Assembly (NCBI GenBank): GCA_965202625.1
Contig: CBDBBI010000010.1
Location: 832,001-896,000 of the forward strand
Reading direction: 5' to 3'
Source of the DNA: a bacterium
Lineage (GTDB): Bacteria > UBA8248
Length of the DNA: 64,000 bases
The position numbers were made by a program, and so were the translations under genes. This document shows, one piece after another, positions 4,178-27,037 of the stretch (the first letter of the stretch is position 1; each line of letters begins with the position of its first letter). A model generated the notes under the pieces. That model saw nothing but the letters and a program-made list of their open reading frames with translations. It had not been told where the DNA came from and made no database searches.

Positions 4178-5460
4178 ACGTGCCCCTTCTGCTGCTCGGC
4201 TCCCTCGCCCTGCTCCTATTCATCCGCGTGCCGGTGGGCGCCTCCCTGGGTGCAGCCTCCATCCTCGTCTATTACGCCACCGGTGAGCACTTCGAGAGCC
4301 TGGCGCTCTCTTATTATGACGGGTTGGACAAGTTCCCCTTCATCGCCGTGCCCATGTTTCTGCTGGCCGGCGCGCTGATGGAGAAGGGCGGCATCAGCAG
4401 GCGCCTCATCGCGGTGGCGGATTGCTTCGTGGGCAACGTGCAGGGCGGCCTCGCTCACGTCACCATTCTTGCGTGCATGCTCTTCTCGGCCATATCGGGC
4501 TCCGGCCCAGCCACCACCGCCGCCGTGGGCGGACTCATGATCCCCACCATGCTCAGGCGCCAATACGACAAGAACTACTCGGGCGCCGTCTCCGCCTGCG
4601 GGGGGACGCTCGGCATACTCATTCCTCCGAGCATCACCCTCATCGTCTATGGGGTGAGCGCGGATCAATCCGTCACGCGGCTGTTCATCGCCGGCTTTCT
4701 GCCCGGCATCCTGCTCGGCTGCATGCTCATGTGCTGCGCCACGATCATGGCGCGCTTCATGACGGTGGAATCCGACTCTGAGCCCTTCTCCGTCTCGCGG
4801 ACGCTGCGCACCATCTGGGAGGCGCGCTGGGCGCTCCTTGCTCCGGGCGTCATCATCGGCGGCATCTACGGCGGCTTCGTCACGCCGACGGAGAGCGCCG
4901 TCATCGCCGTCCTCTACGGCTGGGCGGTCGGCACCTTCGTCTACAAGGAGCTCGACTGGCGCAGAACGCGCGAATGCCTGGAAATCGCGGCCCTGGTCAC
5001 AGGCACCATCGCCATCATCTGGGGGGCGTCGCTCGCGTTCGGCGAGCTGATCACCATTCACCAGATTCCCCAGCTGGTCACCGCCTTCATCCAGGAGGTT
5101 ACGACCTCGCCGTTCTTCATCCTCATACTCATCAGCCTGTTTCTCACTTTCGTGGGAATGTGGCTCAACACCATGGCGCAGGTCATCATCCTCACGCCGA
5201 TGTTCCTCCCCGTCATCAAGGCGGCCGGAATAGACCCCATCCACTTCGGCATCGTTTTCGTGGTGAACTGCGAGATTGGCTACCTCACGCCGCCCCTGGG
5301 CACGAGCCTGTTCGTGGCGATGGGCATCGCGGACACGACGCTTGGCGCCATCGCCAAGGCCGTCCTGCCCTTCATCGTGACGATGTTGCTCTGCATTCTC
5401 GTTCTGTCGTATTTCCCCAGCATCTCCCTTGTCCTGCCGAACCTCATCCTCGGCAGATGA
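4174..5460 (+). CDS. TRAP transporter large permease (DctM family)
   Basis: AVPMFLLAG, SAISGS, LIPPS, TPTESA, DPIHFG, GYLTPPLG motifs. Confidence 0.95.
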   Translation: MNVPLLLLGSLALLLFIRVPVGASLGAASILVYYATGEHFESLALSYYDGLDKFPFIAVPMFLLAGALMEKGGISRRLIAVADCFVGNVQGGLAHVTILACMLFSAISGSGPATTAAVGGLMIPTMLRRQYDKNYSGAVSACGGTLGILIPPSITLIVYGVSADQSVTRLFIAGFLPGILLGCMLMCCATIMARFMTVESDSEPFSVSRTLRTIWEARWALLAPGVIIGGIYGGFVTPTESAVIAVLYGWAVGTFVYKELDWRRTRECLEIAALVTGTIAIIWGASLAFGELITIHQIPQLVTAFIQEVTTSPFFILILISLFLTFVGMWLNTMAQVIILTPMFLPVIKAAGIDPIHFGIVFVVNCEIGYLTPPLGTSLFVAMGIADTTLGAIAKAVLPFIVTMLLCILVLSYFPSISLVLPNLILGR

Positions 5461-5490
5461 GGGGGGCGCCAAGCCAAAAGGAGGCAAACC

Positions 5491-6504
5491 ATGCGACATC
5501 TGAAACGAAGTTTCATGGCGATCGCGGGCGGCGTCCTCGTCGCCGGGCTGCTCGGCTTCACTCTCCCGCAAGCCGAGGCCGCCAAATACGTCATGAGGTT
5601 CGCCCACAACAACCCGCCCAAGCCGCAGCTCCTCTACCAGGCCACGGCCCTCACCATGCGAAAAAACCTCCAGGTCTATTCGAAGGGAGACATCGACATC
5701 CAGATATTCCCCTCCTCCCAGCTCGGCAAAGATCGCGTGGCCGCGAAGAAGGTGCAGCTCGGCTCGGTGCAGATGCAGTTAGTCGCCTCGAACAACATCA
5801 CGGCCTTCGACAGACGTCTTGACATCTTCACCCTGCCCTTCATGTTCAGCAGTTTCAAAGGCGCGGCCAAGGTGTTCAACAGCGACATAGGCAAGACCAT
5901 CGGCGAGAATTTCCGAAAGAAATCGGGCATCCGCGTGCTCGGCTTCGTCGCAACGGGCTTTCGGAACATGATGAACAGCAAACACTCCATCATGAAGCCG
6001 ACGGACCTCGGCGACTTGCGGATGCGAATCGCGAAAAACCCCATCATGGTCGAGACCTACAAATCCCTGGGCGGCAGCACCATCGGCATGGCACCGACCG
6101 AGCTCTTCAGCGCGCTGAGCACCAGGACGGTGGACGGCCACGACGGAGGCTCGAGCTGGGCGTGGGCGATGAAGCTCTACGAGGTGCAGAAATACCTCTC
6201 CATCACCCGGCACCAGCTCGTCGCGGGCGCGCTCATCATGAACGACAAATACTACGAGAATCTGCCCGGGGCCATGCGCAAGGCCGTCCTACTAGCGGCG
6301 CGCGACACCATCGCATGGGCGAACGCCTACGCGGAGGAGGCCGAGAAGGACATCATGAAGGGTTTCGCCGAGAAGGGATTGACCGTCTCCACGCCCGACC
6401 TCAAGCCCTTCCGAAAGGCTGTGCGGCCCGTTCACCAGAAATTCGCCGACAAGGTGGGCGGCATCGACCTCATCAACCGCATACTGAAAATGCAGGAAGG
6501 CTAA
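5491..6504 (+). CDS. TRAP substrate-binding protein (DctP family)
   Basis: Signal peptide; FPSSQLG, LPFMF, GFR, DLGDLRMR motifs. Confidence 0.93.
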   Translation: MRHLKRSFMAIAGGVLVAGLLGFTLPQAEAAKYVMRFAHNNPPKPQLLYQATALTMRKNLQVYSKGDIDIQIFPSSQLGKDRVAAKKVQLGSVQMQLVASNNITAFDRRLDIFTLPFMFSSFKGAAKVFNSDIGKTIGENFRKKSGIRVLGFVATGFRNMMNSKHSIMKPTDLGDLRMRIAKNPIMVETYKSLGGSTIGMAPTELFSALSTRTVDGHDGGSSWAWAMKLYEVQKYLSITRHQLVAGALIMNDKYYENLPGAMRKAVLLAARDTIAWANAYAEEAEKDIMKGFAEKGLTVSTPDLKPFRKAVRPVHQKFADKVGGIDLINRILKMQEG

Positions 6505-7464: not shown

Positions 7465-8364
7465 TCAGGCGGTTTTGAGCGCCTCGCGCACGAGGGGAAC
7501 GATTTCAGAAAATTTCTCCGCCACGAGGACGCCAGCTTCTCTCAGCAGCCTCTTTTTGAGCGAGGGCGCGCCGCGTCCCTTACTCATGAGCGCGCCGGTG
7601 TGGCTCACGCTGGCCGGCGTGGGTGAAGTTTCCCAGAACGCGCCGGGCACCATGGCCACCACGGGTTTCGTGAACCCGCCCGAGGCGATGAAGCGGGCCG
7701 CCTCTTCCTCCCTGTCCGTGCCGGGCTCTCCGAACATGACGACGGCACGGGTCTCGGGGTCCTCCTCGAACAGCGTGAGCATCTCAACGAACGACGCGCC
7801 GATGAGCAGGTCGCCCCCCAGTGCCACGTAGGTGCTCTGGCCGATTCCCGCCCGCGTCAAAAAAAGGCAAATCTCCGCGCCCATTCCTCCGCTTCGGCTC
7901 ACCACGCCCACGGGGCCAGGGCGAAACATGAGGTCCGGCGTCTCGCCCCCCGTGCCGCCGAGTTTCGACTTGCCCGGACTCACCATGCCCTGGCTGTTGG
8001 GGCCGATGACGAAGACGCCCCTTTGCGCCGCGCGCGTCAGTAGCGCACAGGCGTCATGATGCGGAACGCCCTCGGCGAGAACGTGGAGGGTGGGCACGCC
8101 CGCCTCGATAGCCTCCAGGGCGGCGGCGCGTACGAAGCGCGCCGGAACAAAAAGTACGGAGAGGTCCACCTCGTGCGCGCGTAGGGCGTCGGCCACCGCG
8201 TCGTAGATCGGAACGTCCCCGACCCGGGCGCCTCCCCTCCCCGGAGACACGCCCGCCACCACGCGGGTGCCGTAAGCCGTCATGGTGGGCAGCAGCCGCC
8301 GCGCCTCTCCTCCCGTCGCTCCCTGCACGAGCACCCGGGTTTCGGAATCCAGCAGAATGCTCAT
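7465..8364 (-). CDS. ADP-forming acyl-CoA synthetase alpha subunit (SucD-like paralog)
   Basis: MSILLDSETRVLVQGATG, GPNSQG, SRSGG, GIGQS, FGEPG, phospho-His motif SHTGA. Confidence 0.9.
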   Translation of the reverse strand: MSILLDSETRVLVQGATGGEARRLLPTMTAYGTRVVAGVSPGRGGARVGDVPIYDAVADALRAHEVDLSVLFVPARFVRAAALEAIEAGVPTLHVLAEGVPHHDACALLTRAAQRGVFVIGPNSQGMVSPGKSKLGGTGGETPDLMFRPGPVGVVSRSGGMGAEICLFLTRAGIGQSTYVALGGDLLIGASFVEMLTLFEEDPETRAVVMFGEPGTDREEEAARFIASGGFTKPVVAMVPGAFWETSPTPASVSHTGALMSKGRGAPSLKKRLLREAGVLVAEKFSEIVPLVREALKTA

Positions 8365-17727: not shown

Positions 17728-17756
17728 TTGACGAGAAAAACCAATGGGACTACCCT
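17728..17756 (+). promoter_or_regulatory. Putative sigma70 promoter for tRNA-Glu
   Basis: TTGACG-17 nt-TACCCT about 65 nt upstream of the tRNA. Confidence 0.5.
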
Positions 17757-17820
17757 TCTCTCTGTCGCCATCGGGTTGCGGTTGCGCGCGATGGGTGGGG
17801 TGGGGGAGACACCGCGTTAT

Positions 17821-17895
17821 GGCCCCTTCGTCTAGCGGTCAGGACACCGGCCTCTCACGCCGGGAACAGGGGTTCGAGTCCCCTAGGGGTCACCA
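17821..17895 (+). tRNA. tRNA-Glu (anticodon CTC)
   Basis: Acceptor stem GGCCCCT/AGGGGTC plus ACCA; anticodon arm CCGGC-CTCTCAC-GCCGG; T-arm GGTTCGAGTCC. Confidence 0.96.
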
Positions 17896-18037
17896 CACCA
17901 CCCCTGAAAAGCGTTTTCGCTCTCTTAGCGGCCAGCTAACGTGTTGTGCGAAAAAGTCAGTAGGATCCTTCGACAAGGTGCTCGTGCGACATGTCTTGAC
18001 CGCTCGAAACTCGACCGAAATCAATGAGGAGGAACGC

Positions 18038-18361
18038 ATGAAACGCGCGTTGCTTTGCGTTGCTTTTTTTGCAGTGATTTTCTCTGTCCCCACGCAAGCA
18101 TACGCGGCGCAATTATGTCCGGATGGCTCCTATGTCGCCTATGCCCCATGTCATCTGTGCCCCGACGGATCTTACGTAGGTGGTGGCCGCGGCTGCCGGA
18201 TGACGCCGAGAGGCACCTATGTCCCTGACCGAGGCCCGGCCCAGATGGCACCCGACGGCTCATACGTTCCTGGGGGCGGCAACGTGAGAGCGTGTCCGGA
18301 CGGCAGCTACGTAACCGGACGCTGCTTCCTCGCGCCAGATGGAACCTATGTCGGCAAGTAG
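18038..18361 (+). CDS. Small secreted Cys-containing protein with six (C/A/T)P(D/R)G(S/T)YV repeats
   Basis: GAGGAGG RBS; signal peptide ending AYA; repeats LCPDGSYV, LCPDGSYV, MTPRGTYV, MAPDGSYV, ACPDGSYV, LAPDGTYV. Confidence 0.8.
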   Translation: MKRALLCVAFFAVIFSVPTQAYAAQLCPDGSYVAYAPCHLCPDGSYVGGGRGCRMTPRGTYVPDRGPAQMAPDGSYVPGGGNVRACPDGSYVTGRCFLAPDGTYVGK

Positions 18362-21298: not shown

Positions 21299-21754
21299 CT
21301 AGATGCTCACCTGGAAATTCGGCAGACGGGCGTCTCCCCCATCGGCCGAGCGCACGCTCAAATCCTCCAGAGTGGTTTCCCGCAGCGTCTTCTCTATCGC
21401 GTCTTCTAGTTTTTTCCACAAAAGACGGCTTCCGCAGGTCGGAATGTGCGGGCACGGAACCGAAGGCGGGCCCTCGCCGCAGTCCACCGGCTGAATCGTC
21501 TCCCCCACCGCAAACAAAACATCCTTCATGTTGATTTGGGATGGCGGCAGCGCCAGAACGTAGCCGCCTCCCGGCCCTCTCGTGCTGCTCACCAGAGAAG
21601 CCCTCCGCATTTTCACGAACAACTGCTCAAGGTAGTGCTGGCTGATTTTCAGCCCGCCGGCTATCTGGGGCAAGGGAACGGGGTGCGCTTGCGAATGCCT
21701 AGATAGTTCGATCATGGCGAGCACGGCGTAGCGTCCCTTGGTCGATATCTTCAT
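21299..21754 (-). CDS. Rrf2-family transcriptional regulator (IscR/CymR-like, three Cys)
   Basis: MKISTKGRYA, YLEQL, RGPGGGY, C-x8-C-x5-C. Confidence 0.92.
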   Translation of the reverse strand: MKISTKGRYAVLAMIELSRHSQAHPVPLPQIAGGLKISQHYLEQLFVKMRRASLVSSTRGPGGGYVLALPPSQINMKDVLFAVGETIQPVDCGEGPPSVPCPHIPTCGSRLLWKKLEDAIEKTLRETTLEDLSVRSADGGDARLPNFQVSI

Positions 21755-22578
21755 TCGCGGCGTCCCCCCGTCTCGCTTCTCGGCATTGTCCGCTCAACGA
21801 ACGCTTTTCGGCCCGCGGGGGTTTGCGCTTTCCGGCGCCGCGCGAGGGCGCAAGCCGGACAACGCGGGTCTTGCGCCACCGTCAGTCCCCCAAAGGCGTC
21901 ACTCCAAAAATCAGCCGTCAGTAGCCTGTTCAACCAGGTCGGTTTCCGCCCTGCGAGAATCCGGAGCGCGTCGGCCGCCTGCGCCATGCCTACGAAACCC
22001 GCCACGGCACCAAAGACGCCCGTCTCCGCGCAGTCAAGACCCTTTACGCTCACGCCCTCATCCCCCACCAAGCACCGCAAACACGCACTCTCGCCTGGGA
22101 AAATCGTCATTACCTGCCCAAAAAATCGCAAGACACCCCCCATCACCCAAGGCTTGCCCAACGAGGCGCACGCGCTGTTCAGGGCGAGCTTTGAGGGTAA
22201 ATTATCACTTCCATCAACCACGACGCCGTAGGGCGCGATGATTTCGGCGGCGTTCTTCGGCGTGAGCTTTAGAGGAATCCTGTCCACCGACACGCACGTG
22301 GAGAACCGCGATAGGAAATCCGCGCCCGAGTCCACTTTCTTCCGGCCAACATCCTCCGTTCGGTGGAGAATCTGGCGCGCCAGGTTGTCAAGGGTAACGA
22401 CGTCGTGATCCACCATCCCGATCCGCCCCACACCAGAGGCCGCAAGAGCGAGAGCAGCGGGCGAACCCAGACCGCCGACCCCCAGAACAAGCGCGGACGA
22501 AGCCGCCAGCGCGCCCGCGGAACTTGCGCAGTCCCCAAACGCGCCTTCGGACACCGCCAGAGCGTTCGCGCAGTTCAC
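21751..22578 (-). CDS. ThiF/MoeB (E1-like) adenylyltransferase, catalytic type, lacking the N-terminal RYxR(H/Q) helix
   Basis: GVGGLG, DHD, NLARQ, DGSDN, CLRC, C(AETG), CPAC. GTG 22578 overlaps the JAMM stop codon. Confidence 0.88.
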   Translation of the reverse strand: MNCANALAVSEGAFGDCASSAGALAASSALVLGVGGLGSPAALALAASGVGRIGMVDHDVVTLDNLARQILHRTEDVGRKKVDSGADFLSRFSTCVSVDRIPLKLTPKNAAEIIAPYGVVVDGSDNLPSKLALNSACASLGKPWVMGGVLRFFGQVMTIFPGESACLRCLVGDEGVSVKGLDCAETGVFGAVAGFVGMAQAADALRILAGRKPTWLNRLLTADFWSDAFGGLTVAQDPRCPACALARRRKAQTPAGRKAFVERTMPRSETGGRRE

Positions 22579-23069
22579 GCTCCCGCCTCCTCTACGATTT
22601 CCAGCTCGCTTGGGACGAAAGTCTTCCGCCCCCCATCCCAGGAAAACACCTTCTGGCCGCAAACCAAGCCCTCACGCACGCTCATGACGACATGCTCCGC
22701 TTCCGGAAACGATGGGACGTCGCCAAAGGGAAGCGCCGCGTCCTTGTCCTCCTGCGAGAAATAGGCGTCCTCGTCCGGGTGGCTGTGATATATGCCGCGA
22801 ATCACCTCGCCAGTTTCTCTCGCGCGCTCAAGAATGCGTTTAAACTCGAAGGGATCAATCAGAAAAGCGCGGCGTGCCGTCCGGGGATAGGCTTGGGGGT
22901 CTCGCCCATGCATTTCGTTCTGAACGTTTCTGCAGGGTAGAAGACGGAAGCGCGCGCATATCCGCTCCTCCGCGCGCGGCGGACCGAGGATCAGGCCACA
23001 ACATTCATCGGGATAGGCCTCCCGCGCACACCGGCGCATCACCTCTACCTGTTCACGATTCAAGCGCAA
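22575..23069 (-). CDS. JAMM/JAB (Mov34/MPN, M67) metallopeptidase, Mec-like
   Basis: YPDECCG...IYHSHPD...FSQED. Confidence 0.93.
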   Translation of the reverse strand: MRLNREQVEVMRRCAREAYPDECCGLILGPPRAEERICARFRLLPCRNVQNEMHGRDPQAYPRTARRAFLIDPFEFKRILERARETGEVIRGIYHSHPDEDAYFSQEDKDAALPFGDVPSFPEAEHVVMSVREGLVCGQKVFSWDGGRKTFVPSELEIVEEAGA

Positions 23070-23070
23070 A

Positions 23071-24033
23071 TCAAGCCTCCTGGCGCGCCTCGCTCAAATA
23101 TCTGTCTCCGCCATCAGGAAACAGGGTGACGATGACGCCCCTTTCTATCCGCTTCGCCACCTCGCGGACTCCAACGAGCGCGGCGCCTGCGGAGTGGCCG
23201 ATAAAAAGCCCCTCCTCTTTCGCGGCCCTCTCGGCCAACACGTAGCTTTCCTCGGTGCTCGCCAAAATCAGCCGATCGTGGACGCTCTCATCGTAAATTC
23301 CCGGGCGAATGGCCGTGGGGATATGCTTCATGCCTTCGAGACCGTGGAATGACTCTGAAGGCATCACCGCGTGAACCTCAACGTCAGTCTTCCTCGTTTT
23401 CAGGCCGCGTCCTGTGCCCACAAGGGTGCCCGTCGTACCGAGGCCAGCGACGAAATGCGCCACGCACCCATCGGTCTGTTCCAAAATTTCCACTGCCGTA
23501 GTTTCGGCATGGGCGCGAGGGTTCGCCGGGTTGTCGTATTGACATGGCAAGAAGTATTTCTCCGGCTCATCTCGATACATTTTCGCCGCGAGACGCTGCG
23601 CGCCGTCCGAGCCTTCCATCGGATCCGAAAAAATGACGTCGGCCCCATAGCCCCGCAACGTCGCCTTGCGCTCATCGCTCGCGTTCGCCGGAAGGACGAG
23701 GCGGACGGGAATTCCCAGCGCCGCTCCAATCATGGCGTAGGCGATGCCGGTATTCCCGCTCGTAGAATCGAGAAGAACCTTGCCGGAGCGCAATCGCCCG
23801 GATTCCAAGCCATCCCTTACCATGAAGAGCGCGGGCCGATCCTTCACCGAGCCGCCTGGGTTGAACCACTCCGCTTTGGCATACGCTTCCACATGAGGGA
23901 ACTCGCTCCTGAACAAGTTGAGTGCGAGCAGGGGTGTGTTGCCGATACATTTGAGAATGGCAGAATCCTCTATGTCCCTGAACACGCTTCCGGAATTTCG
24001 CACCGTGGATTCGATCATTGGCATGGCCCCCAT
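23071..24033 (-). CDS. cysM: Cysteine synthase B-type (CysM-like)
   Basis: IGNTPL, NPGGSVKDR, TSGNTG, GLGTTGT, HGLEGMKH, FPDGGDRYLS. Confidence 0.82.
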   Translation of the reverse strand: MGAMPMIESTVRNSGSVFRDIEDSAILKCIGNTPLLALNLFRSEFPHVEAYAKAEWFNPGGSVKDRPALFMVRDGLESGRLRSGKVLLDSTSGNTGIAYAMIGAALGIPVRLVLPANASDERKATLRGYGADVIFSDPMEGSDGAQRLAAKMYRDEPEKYFLPCQYDNPANPRAHAETTAVEILEQTDGCVAHFVAGLGTTGTLVGTGRGLKTRKTDVEVHAVMPSESFHGLEGMKHIPTAIRPGIYDESVHDRLILASTEESYVLAERAAKEEGLFIGHSAGAALVGVREVAKRIERGVIVTLFPDGGDRYLSEARQEA

Positions 24034-24042
24034 TCTGACGTC

Positions 24043-24696
24043 CTAAAACGTTCCAGGAGACGATCGCGTTCGCTTCGTGGCGCCGCGTGAAAGATCAAAA
24101 CGGGCCTGAGTAGTCGACCCCACCGTGTCCGCCCCATCAACTAGGCGCCGCAAGGCCCTAGCTGCTAGCCACGCGCCCAAAACGCCCTGAGTCGCCGCCA
24201 TTTGCGCCTCTCTACCGGGTGAGGCCGCGTCGCCCCCCTCAGACGCTCCACTCCCCTCGAGAATCTCTGCCACGGCGCCGCGCACGACAATTCTTTTTGC
24301 GGCTTTGAACGCCGCGAAATCCTCAACGGATTCATCGCCCAGCCAAACAAGCAAGTCGAAATGCGCCCCGACTACCTCGTTCGGACGATACCGAATGAAC
24401 CGCGCATCCGGGTTGAGGCTCTGGACACCACCGCAGGCGCCGAGAAATGGAGAGAGGGAAAATTCATCTCGAAGCCGCCCACCCTCGGTATCGAATCCAT
24501 CGAGTGGACACCACCCAATGCGGCCTACACCTGCGGCCGCCAGGTAGACCAAGGCGAGGGCCGCGGCGCCTTCTTCATTTATCGAAAACGCGATAAGGAC
24601 GGATGAAGCCAAAAGACGCTCTTGCCCGACTCCTCCCACCTCGGGAAGCAGAACGTGGCGGCTGTATCGCTGGATCTGCTCCTCCGTCAAGTTCAA
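24043..24696 (-). CDS. Degenerate ThiF/MoeB-like protein (pseudo-enzyme retaining RYSRH)
   Basis: MNLTEEQIQRYSRHVLLPEVGGVGQERL, YLAAAGVG, LNPD and GVLGAWLAARALRRL are kept. GxGGxG, DxD, NLxRQ and both CxxC are absent. Intact ORF with AAGGAG RBS. Confidence 0.8.
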   Translation of the reverse strand: MNLTEEQIQRYSRHVLLPEVGGVGQERLLASSVLIAFSINEEGAAALALVYLAAAGVGRIGWCPLDGFDTEGGRLRDEFSLSPFLGACGGVQSLNPDARFIRYRPNEVVGAHFDLLVWLGDESVEDFAAFKAAKRIVVRGAVAEILEGSGASEGGDAASPGREAQMAATQGVLGAWLAARALRRLVDGADTVGSTTQARFDLSRGATKRTRSSPGTF

Positions 24697-24729
24697 AGAG
24701 CGGCTCTCCTTTCAGGCTGTAGAAAGCGG

Positions 24730-25008
24730 CTACAGCCCGCCCGCAATCGCTGGCACGATAGAGAGTTCATCGCCATCGCTCACCGCCGTTCCCTCGCCTT
24801 GCAAGAAGCGAATATCCTCCTGATTCACGTAGATGTTCACGAAACGGCGCAACCTAGCTTCATCGTCATAGAGACGCTGGCGAATGCCGGCGAATCGCCT
24901 ATCAAGGTTCTCAAGTACCTCCCTAACGTCCTCGCCCTCGATCTCCACGGCGTCTCGCTGCTGCGTGAACTCTTGCAAAGGTGTCGGAATACGAACCGTT
25001 ACCGCCAT
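24730..25008 (-). CDS. MoaD/ThiS/CysO-family ubiquitin-like sulfur carrier, C-terminus IAGG-L
   Basis: VRIPTPL, RRFVNIYVNQEDIRFL, DGDELSIVPAIAGGL. Confidence 0.93.
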   Translation of the reverse strand: MAVTVRIPTPLQEFTQQRDAVEIEGEDVREVLENLDRRFAGIRQRLYDDEARLRRFVNIYVNQEDIRFLQGEGTAVSDGDELSIVPAIAGGL

Positions 25009-25060
25009 TTCCGCCTCCTGATCTGAAAACCCCTCTTAGGGGATGGTCGAAATAAAATTC

Positions 25061-26020
25061 CTAACGAAACTGCCGCTCCAGACTATAATATCTCTCCCAG
25101 CCATCGGGTATGACCACCACCATGTTCTCATCCGGATGCATCCGCCTAGCCACGCGCAGGGCGGCGCAAACAGCTGCGCCCGCCGAGATGCCGGCGGCCA
25201 TACCTTCCTCCCGGCTCAGGGATTTACTCATGTCGTAGGCCTCTTCATCCGTCACTTGGACCACCTCGTCAATGATATTTCGATTCAAAACTCCGGGAAT
25301 GAAGCCGGCGCCAATCCCCTGTATTTGGTGCGGTGCCGGCTCTCCGCCAGAGAGAACGGGAGAGGCGGAGGGCTCCACGCCGACGATCAGGATTTGCGGC
25401 CTCCTCTCCTTCAAAACCTCGCCCACACCCGTGATTGTCCCCCCTGTGCCCACGCCCGCCACGAAGGCGTCCACCGATTCCATACCCATGTCGCGCAGAA
25501 TCTCCCGCGCCGTGGTTCTGCGATGAATTTCCGGATTGGCCGGATTGTTAAACTGCTGGGGCATAAAATAATCCGGATTCTCCGCCAAAAGGGCCTCCGC
25601 CTTCACGAGCGAGCCGTACATGCCCCCTTCGCTTGAGCTGAACACCACCTCCGCCCCGTAGCCCGTGAGCAGTGCGTGCCGCTCGTGGCTCATGCTCCTG
25701 CTCAAGACGATGATCGTCCGATAGCCTCGAATGGCGCCGATGAGCGCGAGACCGATGCCCGTGTTACCGCTCGTAGGCTCGATGATCGTTCCGCCGGGCT
25801 TGAGCAAACCGCGCCGCTCGCCGTCCAACACCATACTGAGCGCAATACGATCCTTCACGCTTCCGCCGGGGTTGTATTGCTCCAGCTTGGCGAACACGCG
25901 CGCTCCCGACGAATCGGGGAGACGCCGCAGCTGGACGAGACTCGTGCTCCCGATACCATCAAGTAGCGAGGGGAGCGCTCTCAAAATCCGAGGCGGGCGG
26001 CCCCGGGTGCCCAACGCCAT
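25061..26020 (-). CDS. cysK: Cysteine synthase A
   Basis: NPGGSVKDR, EPTSGNTG, QQFNNPAN, GVGTGGT, HQIQGIGAGF. Confidence 0.9.
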   Translation of the reverse strand: MALGTRGRPPRILRALPSLLDGIGSTSLVQLRRLPDSSGARVFAKLEQYNPGGSVKDRIALSMVLDGERRGLLKPGGTIIEPTSGNTGIGLALIGAIRGYRTIIVLSRSMSHERHALLTGYGAEVVFSSSEGGMYGSLVKAEALLAENPDYFMPQQFNNPANPEIHRRTTAREILRDMGMESVDAFVAGVGTGGTITGVGEVLKERRPQILIVGVEPSASPVLSGGEPAPHQIQGIGAGFIPGVLNRNIIDEVVQVTDEEAYDMSKSLSREEGMAAGISAGAAVCAALRVARRMHPDENMVVVIPDGWERYYSLERQFR

Positions 26021-26081
26021 CAGAGTTCCCCCTTCCCCCAAAATCCCCTCACGCGAAAACCCTAACCCACGAGAGACTATA

Positions 26082-26106: not shown

Positions 26107-26215
26107 TTCTAAATTCCGTGATTTTACATTTTCTCCAGCACACTCCCAATATATTCTCCTTATGCTACATTCTCATGGCGCGCACGTCTTATGATATGAT
26201 GTAAGGAGAGTGGAC

Positions 26216-27037
26216 ATGAGAAAATCCCCGACGATTCCCCCCATCGCCTTGACGATAGCGGGATCAGACTCCGGCGGCGGTGCGGGAATTCAAGCCGACC
26301 TGAAAACTTTCGGTGCGTTCGGCGTCTATGGCGCCTCGATCATCACCGCCCTGACGGCGCAAAACACCGTGGGCGTCCAAGCGACGCACGACGTACCGCC
26401 CGACTTCATCGGAGCGCAACTCAACTCGGTGTGCTCTGACCTTGCAATCGCGAGTGCCAAAATCGGTATGCTCGCCACGGCCGAGGTCATCGAGGTAATC
26501 GCCGAGAGGGTGAAAGCGCACGCGGTCGCTCCCGTCGTGCTTGACCCGGTGATGGTCGCAAAAAGCGGGGATCGGCTTTTGCTGTCTGACGCGAAAGACG
26601 CGCTCGTTGAAAAGCTCTTTCCGTTGGCGGAAATCATCACTCCCAACGCGGATGAGGCGCGGGACATTCTAGAAATAGGGGAAATCAGAAACCTATCGGA
26701 CATGAAAACGGCCGCCCGCATGCTCCACGAGCGAGGAGCCAGACGCGTTTTGTTGAAGGGGGGACACATCACCGAAGGGGCAGTAGATTTCTTTTTCGAC
26801 GGGGAAAACGAGGTCACCCTGAAAGGCAGGCGCGTCGACACGCCACACACCCACGGGACGGGGTGCACGCTGTCCTCGGCCATCGCCGCGAGCATGGCGC
26901 TGGGCGCATCGACCATTGAGGCGACGAGGCGGGCGAAGCGCTTCATTCAAGGCGCCATCGAGAACGCACTGGACATCGGAAACGGAAGAGGGCCGCTTAA
27001 CCACATGTATCGCCAACGCAAAGAGGAACTGCCATAA
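26216..27037 (+). CDS. thiD: Hydroxymethylpyrimidine/phosphomethylpyrimidine kinase
   Basis: IAGSDSGGGAGIQADLK, DPVM, TPN, HGTGCT. Confidence 0.95.
   Translation: MRKSPTIPPIALTIAGSDSGGGAGIQADLKTFGAFGVYGASIITALTAQNTVGVQATHDVPPDFIGAQLNSVCSDLAIASAKIGMLATAEVIEVIAERVKAHAVAPVVLDPVMVAKSGDRLLLSDAKDALVEKLFPLAEIITPNADEARDILEIGEIRNLSDMKTAARMLHERGARRVLLKGGHITEGAVDFFFDGENEVTLKGRRVDTPHTHGTGCTLSSAIAASMALGASTIEATRRAKRFIQGAIENALDIGNGRGPLNHMYRQRKEELP

Follow-up and report, generated by a model that had tools for sequence, protein, structure and literature searches.

How can two proteins of the same adenylyltransferase fold be encoded in one metabolic operon if each of them lacks what the other has kept? This question is raised by a seven-gene operon on the minus strand of the DNA stretch analysed here (the window, 64,000 nucleotides, G000:C10:832001-896000). 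The window is part of a 3.09 Mb genome whose relatives are titled Nitrospinota or Nitrospinae, and the source organism is a relative of marine nitrite-oxidisers. The operon encodes a ThiS/CysO-like sulfur carrier, that is a ubiquitin-like protein, and two proteins related to ThiF and MoeB, in the following called A and B. An initial annotation had interpreted A and B as the two subunits of a heterodimeric activating enzyme (E1) for this carrier. We find this interpretation supported as far as computation goes, as none of the computable objections named along with it has refuted it, and the mechanism is plausible. In our estimate the probability is about 65% that A and B are the subunits of an asymmetric E1-like enzyme with one active site which is dedicated to the CysO-type carrier of the operon. 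The positions given initially for the two open reading frames are right; both lie on the minus strand and each is preceded by a motif resembling a ribosome-binding site:

24043–24696, minus strand: B, a degenerate protein of the ThiF/MoeB fold and the proposed inactive subunit (from profile, model and the ratio of nonsynonymous to synonymous substitutions, dN/dS)
24655–24672, minus strand: codons of residues 9–14 of B (QRYSRH) in the N-terminal helix, with the candidate arginine finger R10/R13
21751–22578, minus strand: A, a catalytically complete ThiF/MoeB adenylyltransferase without N-terminal helix and without rhodanese domain
22465–22482, minus strand: codons of the nucleotide-binding loop GVGGLG of A, residues 33–38 (read directly from the sequence)

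Protein B has 217 amino acids and starts with a TTG codon, 9 nucleotides upstream of which AGGAG is found. Its sequence starts with MNLTEEQIQRYSRHVLLPEVGGVGQERLL and contains later on YLAAAGVGRIGW, LNPD, and GVLGAWLAARALRRL. The similarity to MoeB is strong at the N-terminus (QRYSRHVLLPEVGGVGQERLL), and YLAAAGVGRIGW, LNPD and the long C-terminal helix are also kept. In an alignment with canonical MoeBs, however, B is devoid of GxGGxG (SINEEG at this place), DxD, NLxRQ with the following lysine, and DxxDN, as well as of the CxxC/Cys of the crossover loop and the C-terminal CxxC. The initial description of a protein which has retained the helices and lost its catalytic and nucleotide-binding motifs is thus borne out by the alignment. 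B is barely seen by the public models: the Pfam ThiF profile gives E 0.0086 and 15.7 bits, which is less than the cut-off of 28.1, and covers profile positions 1–48 only, and all NCBIfam MoeB models stay below their cut-offs and match only the N-terminus. In contrast, a profile of the B family matches the PDB chains of Uba4, ThiF, and MoeB with E-values from 1.5e-12 to 1.8e-8 and aligns with MoeB from residue 3. The AlphaFold model of B (mean predicted local distance difference test, pLDDT, 68.6; predicted template-modelling score, pTM, 0.70) has its best Foldseek matches in Uba4, MoeB, and ThiF (template-modelling (TM) score 0.52–0.61, E 2.8e-7 and weaker), and the chains of APPBP1 and SAE1 match as well (TM 0.39–0.46). 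Judged from this model, B has the ThiF/MoeB fold despite failing the Pfam cut-off. In addition, the B proteins of the Nitrospinota end without the C-terminal part that follows the FDLS motif in canonical MoeBs and that helps MoeB to bind the carrier. No cysteine is invariant in 59 B sequences.

Protein A (275 amino acids, GTG start, GGAGG upstream) is the mirror image that the initial annotation had seen in it. The motifs GVGGLG, DHD, NLARQ, RKK, DGSDN, CLRC, DCAETG, and CPAC are all present; in the family alignment (A2) G33, G35, G36, and G38 are invariant and so are the catalytic motifs of the superfamily. The match to Pfam ThiF (PF00899) has an E-value of 3.4e-60 and 203.6 bits, but it covers profile positions 17–237 only, and in the alignments with PDB chains A corresponds to residues 26–244 of ThiF (E 7.3e-35) and 28–248 of MoeB (7e-34). 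According to Pfam, A consists of a ThiF domain only, with no rhodanese domain; there is only a short crossover loop and neither a catalytic-cysteine domain nor a ubiquitin-fold domain. The RYxR(H/Q) helix is missing, as R[YF]xR[QH] precedes the glycine-rich loop (G-loop) in none of 67 A-family clusters. Most of these clusters begin ∼15 residues ahead of the G-loop; in two of the 67 a G-loop cannot be recognised, and these two resemble artefacts of the reading frame or of gene calling. The helix is present in 50 of the 53 next-best canonical MoeB homologues, some of which carry a rhodanese domain (33 with RYxR[QH], 17 with RYxRN), and two of the three homologues without it group with A-like proteins of other phyla. 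Thus, one protein is without a nucleotide site and the other has a complete one, which is the pattern of a heterodimeric E1.

A much simpler explanation would be that nothing special is present, that is, B is a decaying pseudogene duplicate or the start of A has been mis-called. Concerning A, the longest possible reading frame (from 22662) contains no RYxRQ motif and its extra residues are a frame overlapping the neighboring gene of a JAMM protease. Likewise, no RYxRQ helix is found in the open frames upstream of A in seven of seven orthologous loci. Together with the 67 clusters this settles the reservation about the start that had been made initially. Concerning B, decay would fit with its score under the Pfam cut-off, with an evolution faster than that of the neighboring genes, and with an in-frame stop in 2 of 30 B matches (TAG in G048 and TGA in G041). 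The match in G041 is, as a side observation, also split over two contigs. On the other hand, ∼75 proteins of ∼215–235 amino acids match B over the full length with intact frames (weakest E 1.6e-18), and beyond these the list drops to ordinary MoeBs that match only the N-terminus of B. When 59 B sequences are aligned, 27 columns are invariant, including R10, Y11, S12, H14, L16, L17, P18, G21, G24, and Q25, and R13 is conserved to at least 90%. The dN/dS values, which are Nei–Gojobori medians over the window and up to nine orthologous loci and only approximate as dS is ∼0.5–1, amount for B to 0.30 overall, 0.14 for residues 1–62, 0.38 for the middle part, and 0.25 for the C-terminal helix. For A the ratio is 0.23 and for the other operon genes 0.06–0.14. 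B is the loosest gene of the operon yet clearly under purifying selection, which is strongest at the region of the N-terminal helix. Neutral decay, considered as a possible objection by the initial annotation, is hence rejected, and as synteny is also kept in nine of nine loci we give the pseudogene or mis-called-start explanation practically no weight. The complementarity of A and B holds throughout two entire protein families and is not the chance of a single genome.

Besides A and B the operon comprises five genes; in the direction of transcription the order is CysK, carrier, B, CysM-like enzyme, JAMM protease, A, and Rrf2 regulator:

25061–26041, minus strand: CysK-type cysteine synthase, first gene of the operon (Pfam PALP 2.2e-78)
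24730–25008, minus strand: ThiS/MoaD/CysO-like sulfur carrier (Pfam ThiS 1.4e-17)
23071–24033, minus strand: CysM-like pyridoxal phosphate (PLP) enzyme, candidate carrier-thiocarboxylate-dependent cysteine synthase (Pfam PALP 9.7e-62)
22575–23069, minus strand: JAMM/Mec+-type metalloprotease (Pfam Prok-JAB 6.2e-18)
21299–21754, minus strand: Rrf2-family regulator, IscR/CymR-like (Pfam Rrf2 1.7e-35)

The CysK-type synthase reaches 404 bits with NCBIfam TIGR01139 (cysK, cut-off 350.95) and its gene is syntenic in nine of nine related loci; the carrier is just above the cut-off of TIGR01687 (moaD_arch, 50.7 bits vs. 49.5). The CysM-like enzyme stays under the cut-off of TIGR01138 (cysM, 330.9 vs. 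394.2 bits) and the regulator under those of IscR (120 bits) and CymR (109 bits). No E2-like gene is found among the Pfam matches of the operon proteins. The junctions around A are tight: its GTG start overlaps the JAMM stop (GTGA) and its stop overlaps the ATG start of the Rrf2 gene (ATGA). The latter overlap lies at 21751–21757 in the window. In the database, the Pfam domains of Rrf2 and ThiF are united in two gene calls (P0163 and P0184, 388 and 393 amino acids), which probably result from frame errors or wrong calls and not from true fusions. Metatranscriptome contigs of at least 99% identity (four runs of one study) cover parts of A, JAMM, CysM, B, and ThiS, and one of them (24560–25031) runs from ThiS into B. 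Such contigs report the presence in RNA libraries, not the expression level or transcript ends, and DNA carry-over is possible, so they are a weak hint that A and B are expressed.

The gene order is identical in nine of nine loci on genome contigs (with Nitrospinota-type titles or untitled ‘bacterium’), and A is present in all seven loci whose contigs extend far enough. Among 51 genomes of the phylum, which are kin so that the counts are not independent events, a full-length B is found in 30, an A-type protein (E 1e-70 or better) in 29, and neither of them in 20. An A-type protein without B occurs in none of the 51 genomes. The sole genome with B and without A is G022, where B lies on a contig of ∼3.2 kb. 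In G009, which belongs to another family, ThiS and the start of a B-like gene are located at a contig end and a CysM-JAMM-A-like arrangement on another contig. One relative, G029, has two B and two A matches and shows two copies of the operon, although its stated contamination is 16%. Three genomes (G023, G034, and G039) keep CysK-ThiS-CysM-JAMM-Rrf2 at 62–90% protein identity, and in these both the slot of B between ThiS and CysM and the slot of A between JAMM and Rrf2 are empty. G023 and G034 are single-contig (closed) genomes from the genus of the window, G039 is from another genus. As two genes at separate positions of the operon are both missing, A and B are gained or lost as a unit. The possibility that B is simply absent from relatives, which the initial annotation had listed as a counterargument, has thus turned into the observation that A and B are present or absent together.

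A canonical MoeB, with an open frame of ∼400 amino acids, is encoded as well in every genome of the phylum that gave a match. In the window genome this housekeeping enzyme is encoded at ∼1,288,000 of G000:C10 and carries, besides a rhodanese domain at the N-terminus, a RYSRH helix of its own. As a protein of the ThiF fold could in principle dimerise with this enzyme, B might pair with it instead of A and divert or regulate it. We consider this very unlikely, as B is never found without an A-type protein where the contig allows a decision, shares the operon with A, and disappears along with A, whereas the housekeeping enzyme is retained. Furthermore, the conserved helix of B would be redundant for a partner which owns such a helix. 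Where A and B are missing, the canonical MoeB presumably serves the carrier.

We also modelled A together with B, each with its family alignment and in the A:B pairing only, in three runs with three controls. The interaction prediction score from aligned errors (ipSAE) is 0.88 in three of three runs and 0.00 for the best control; with solved complexes the mark for this score was attained in 58 of 80 cases and with mismatched pairs in 2 of 110, which is a rough calibration since own alignments were supplied. At least 67% of the contacts are shared between the runs, and the pLDDT of B is 66–67. The confident interface comprises residues 9–14, 16–17, 19–20, 47–56, 83–96, and 164–183 of B and residues 40–48, 63–75 (named are 63–64, 66–68, 70, and 73–75), and 183–209 of A. 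Residues 63–75 of A are the NLARQ region including N65, L66, and R68, and in the model this region of the ATP site faces residues 9–14 of B. The modelled geometry is what one would predict for a MoeB-type dimer with B in the place of the second protomer and with the N-terminal helix of B on the ATP site of A. The modelling does not speak against the heterodimer suggested initially, as the pair is well separated from the controls; as a proof of binding the score does not serve, as it may reflect the memory of solved MoeB and ThiF homodimers.

How could such an enzyme work? In MoeB and ThiF, Arg14 and Arg11, respectively, come from the neighboring subunit, as stated in PMC13139853 and in line with the background of the initial annotation. 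By analogy, A would bind ATP as well as the Gly-Gly at the C-terminus of the carrier and form the acyl-adenylate, and a later step would form the carrier thiocarboxylate. B would be an inactive adenylation-fold subunit in the place of the second protomer of a MoeB/ThiF homodimer; it would contribute the helices of the dimer interface together with the N-terminal helix containing RYSRH, and the arginine(s) of the latter would reach the ATP site of A in trans. We propose that A could dispense with its own helix since the partner site to be served, that of B, is dead. The analysis has shown the complementary motifs, their conservation, the common gain or loss of the two genes, their operon context, and a complex model well above its controls; physical heterodimerisation, arginine action in trans, the one-site stoichiometry, and the steps of the pathway are inferred. 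For sulfur transfer, A has no rhodanese domain and B no conserved cysteine.

The carrier itself gives a hint how the pathway may proceed. In the window it ends with AGG and one extra residue, Leu (24730–24741). In 14 of 14 orthologues (among them L009–L017 and L124–L128) the GG is followed by one to three variable residues (L, R, V, D, C, LY, or ARA), and in none is the GG terminal. Read from the sequences, these residues imply an obligatory C-terminal trimming of the carrier, presumably by the JAMM protease of the operon. In mycobacteria CysM makes a carrier-cysteine adduct with CysO and the protease Mec+ releases the cysteine. The present operon combines a CysM-type PLP enzyme and a JAMM protease with the carrier as in this CysO/CysM/Mec+ pathway. 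Because of the variable residues behind the GG, the JAMM protease probably acts first and would trim the one to three residues; the CysM-like enzyme would then use the thiocarboxylate to form the carrier-cysteine adduct, from which JAMM would free the cysteine as in the mycobacterial route. Two further genes of the window were noticed in passing: a ThiD-type hydroxymethylpyrimidine/phosphomethylpyrimidine kinase (26210–27037, plus strand) divergent from the operon, and an entry of the open reading frame list (17744–18361, plus strand) predicted to be a small secreted protein with ∼6 (C)PDGSYV repeats after a signal-like hydrophobic stretch.

Is B confined to the Nitrospinota? An exhaustive search with the B-family profile yields only 8 representatives at E 1e-30 or better. 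Among the best 150 representatives, 41 proteins of 195–300 amino acids keep the RYxR[QH] helix and are without NLxRQ-like and DxxD[NS] motifs; when these regular expressions are applied to 42 canonical proteins, every motif is detected in 41 of them, and the remaining one is a fragment of 149 amino acids. In 40 degenerate relatives the mean column identity is 27%, and R12, Y13, R15, G23, G26, Q27, G55, G57, and N91 are invariant; most of them retain both CxxC pairs. A quick maximum-likelihood tree separates all 30 degenerate rows (7 of them Nitrospinota B, 23 others) from 35 active ones with a value of 95.5 in the Shimodaira–Hasegawa-like approximate likelihood ratio test (SH-aLRT), a grouping to which long branches and shared losses could contribute. 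The A-type proteins are split in this tree, yet a single clade is not rejected (p of the approximately unbiased test, p-AU, 0.27). The scores of profile A5 do not separate the classes (255 bits for degenerate vs. 225–235 for canonical proteins). Scans of subgroup A6 in genome contigs and of P0263 in metagenome contigs gave, among the matches listed, 29–38% identity only, and these matches are taken for canonical MoeBs; the scan with the C-terminal part of P0263 gave no orthologue, and P0361 was not found in the 251 Nitrospirota-side genomes scanned.

The genomic context could be located for three degenerate relatives, a small sample chosen by the presence of the B-like gene. All three genomes (G051, G165, and G349) also encode an N-truncated but otherwise complete ThiF; each has exactly one canonical, one N-truncated, and one degenerate ThiF above E 1e-10, and G051 and G349 carry further weak ThiF-fold matches. 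In two of the three, the N-truncated ThiF shares an operon with ThiS and a CysM-like gene. G051, a metagenome-assembled genome titled Candidatus Binatia, has the series A-like ThiF, 483-amino acid PALP, ThiS, CysM-like PALP, NIL-domain protein, and B-like; the A-like ThiF starts 16 residues before the strand, has no helix, and is preceded by stop codons. In G165, from the phylum sample of G051, the A-like ThiF, ThiS, CysM-like, and B-like genes are, in this order, followed by CysD-like and CysN/C-like sulfate-activation genes. In G349 (P0351; NCBI title Planctomycetota) the B-like gene is at a contig end. The Binatia operon suggests a second thiocarboxylate-dependent reaction, possibly in homocysteine or methionine synthesis. 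On the Binatia-titled locus L290, the 483-amino acid PALP enzyme (4707–6158) has an N-terminal NinF-like zinc-ribbon match, and the NIL-domain protein beside the split E1 (7584–7820) has 78 amino acids.

Two ThiF-fold genes in one neighborhood may also be something else. Nitrospira loci matching most of B were rejected as candidates, for they encode ordinary full MoeBs, two per cluster. In these Nitrospira-titled loci (L033, L036, L048, L051, L057, L061, L071–L073, L078, and L088) the order is CysK, MoeB, a gap, ThiS, MoeB, and JAMM, with two complete canonical MoeBs ∼2.7 kb apart. This pair represents another kind of duplication in a similar pathway, one without degeneration. Of ten two-ThiF regions in the phylum of G051, eight have two canonical MoeBs, one is ambiguous (a canonical MoeB and one without a clear helix), and one has the complementary pair. 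Given these eight regions and the Nitrospira clusters, neighboring ThiF genes alone do not imply the split form. With this in mind, we suggest only tentatively, at somewhat less than even odds, that B belongs to a wider, unannotated ‘pseudo-MoeB’ family in several phyla (Nitrospinota, a Binatia lineage, Planctomycetota, and unplaced metagenomic lineages) which provides the inactive subunit of two-gene E1s for CysO-type carriers.

The principle of an asymmetric E1 is known from other systems. The eukaryotic enzymes NAE1/APPBP1-UBA3 and SAE1-UBA2 resemble A/B in that they consist of two polypeptides of the MoeB/ThiF fold, one of which does not bind the nucleotide. According to PMC10557695 it is the inactive adenylation domain that supplies a key arginine to the only active site, which agrees with the precedent quoted by the initial annotation. 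Unlike the eukaryotic E1s, however, A/B lack the catalytic-cysteine insertion, the ubiquitin-fold domain, and an E2 or E3, and their product is presumably a thiocarboxylate for cysteine synthesis instead of a protein conjugate. The best structural matches of B are MoeB, ThiF, and Uba4 rather than the inactive subunits of eukaryotes, which makes an independent origin the simpler interpretation. In bacteria, BilD of the antiviral system BilABCD has an inactive and an active adenylation domain with one active site, to which the inactive domain contributes Arg9; in contrast to the two separate genes of our metabolic operon it is described there as a single fused chain with a mobile cysteine domain which acts with an E2 in phage defence (PMC10557695). 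The same text states that the E1-like proteins known from bacteria, for example ThiF, MoeB, and Cap2, are all homodimers. In the symmetric homodimers of Escherichia coli MoeB-MoaD and ThiF-ThiS both sites are described as active, whereas A and B have each lost what the other keeps. A heterodimer of small ThiF-family paralogues with complementary defects is found in yeast Tcd1-Tcd2, the tRNA ct6A dehydratase: according to PMC13139853, Tcd1 lacks an ATP-coordinating arginine and gives the arginine finger Arg59 to the site of Tcd2. This system is eukaryotic and acts on tRNA, A/B are bacterial and would act on a ubiquitin-like protein. The operon class is known as well. Type 4c of Iyer et al. (2006) unites a ThiS-like carrier, a cysteine synthase, a JAB protease, and an E1-like gene, and both this type and the mycobacterial CysO-CysM-Mec+ (MoeZR) system share these components with the A/B operon. 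Nevertheless, the E1 described for them consists of one protein with a rhodanese domain as fusion partner, whereas A is without rhodanese and accompanied by the degenerate B, and the carrier of the A/B operon differs from theirs in the extra residues after the GG.

Several observations speak against an asymmetric A/B enzyme. PMC13139853 describes the fingers Arg14 of MoeB and Arg11 of ThiF as not essential and E. coli TcdA as having no arginine finger, so that the loss of the helix need not inactivate a homodimer of A. In the same text, the R59A mutation of Tcd1 lost only 26% of the product ratio, and the finger may thus be dispensable in A/B too. A keeps the homodimer-interface helix (residues 183–209, which is also part of the modelled interface). 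One B lineage (P0059, standing for 22 sequences) has His at the position of R13, and in-frame stops occur in B as mentioned above. The complex score may show the likeness to solved MoeB/ThiF homodimers rather than binding. In G349, the N-truncated complete ThiF lies on a different contig than the B-like gene and adjacency is not established there. Finally, proteins of 381–2000 amino acids yielded no B-A fusion with an E-value of 1e-10 or better, although this search was a weak one.

Some of these points would be accommodated if A alone were a finger-less homodimeric E1 and B an accessory protein, for example a regulator of A or a scaffold for the carrier, the CysM-like enzyme, or a sulfur donor. 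The dispensable finger, the TcdA precedent, and the retained interface helix of A would then be readily understood, and co-occurrence indicates a functional link but not the mode of interaction. On the contrary, the most conserved part of B and of the 40 degenerate relatives is just the RYxR helix together with the interface elements, and the known role of this helix in the family is at the ATP site of the partner. A role in sulfur transfer or carrier binding is not favored either, as B has no invariant cysteine and in Nitrospinota lacks the part behind FDLS that canonical MoeBs keep. Moreover, the helix of A has been lost in all 67 of 67 clusters, and this loss is restricted to cases in which B is present. 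We therefore regard an accessory role of B as less likely, though as a serious alternative, and prefer the asymmetric enzyme composed of A and B.

Bacterial MoeB and ThiF are the textbook homodimeric enzymes which have become asymmetric heterodimers or pseudo-dimers (Uba1-type) in eukaryotes. While the principle of the asymmetric E1 and the operon class are known, we did not find a two-gene inactive/active E1 of a bacterial sulfur-carrier system described in the full-text literature, which leaves most subscription journals uncovered; the initial annotation knew of no such case either. In databases the B-type proteins are at present titled ‘hypothetical protein’ or mis-named adenylyltransferase, which calls for a correction of the annotation, and they are overlooked when the pathway of cysteine synthesis is reconstructed for marine nitrite oxidisers and further uncultured groups. 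A two-gene bacterial E1 in an ordinary metabolic operon, a kind of enzyme so far known mainly from eukaryotes, would be a natural and simple test of how asymmetry evolves, and for what reason, with the close relatives without both genes as built-in controls, and would show what the arginine finger and the second protomer contribute. If the wider family is real, bacterial sulfur metabolism would also have evolved and maintained the split into an inactive and an active subunit as known from eukaryotes, in this case through the duplication of a homodimeric enzyme and a subsequent reciprocal loss.

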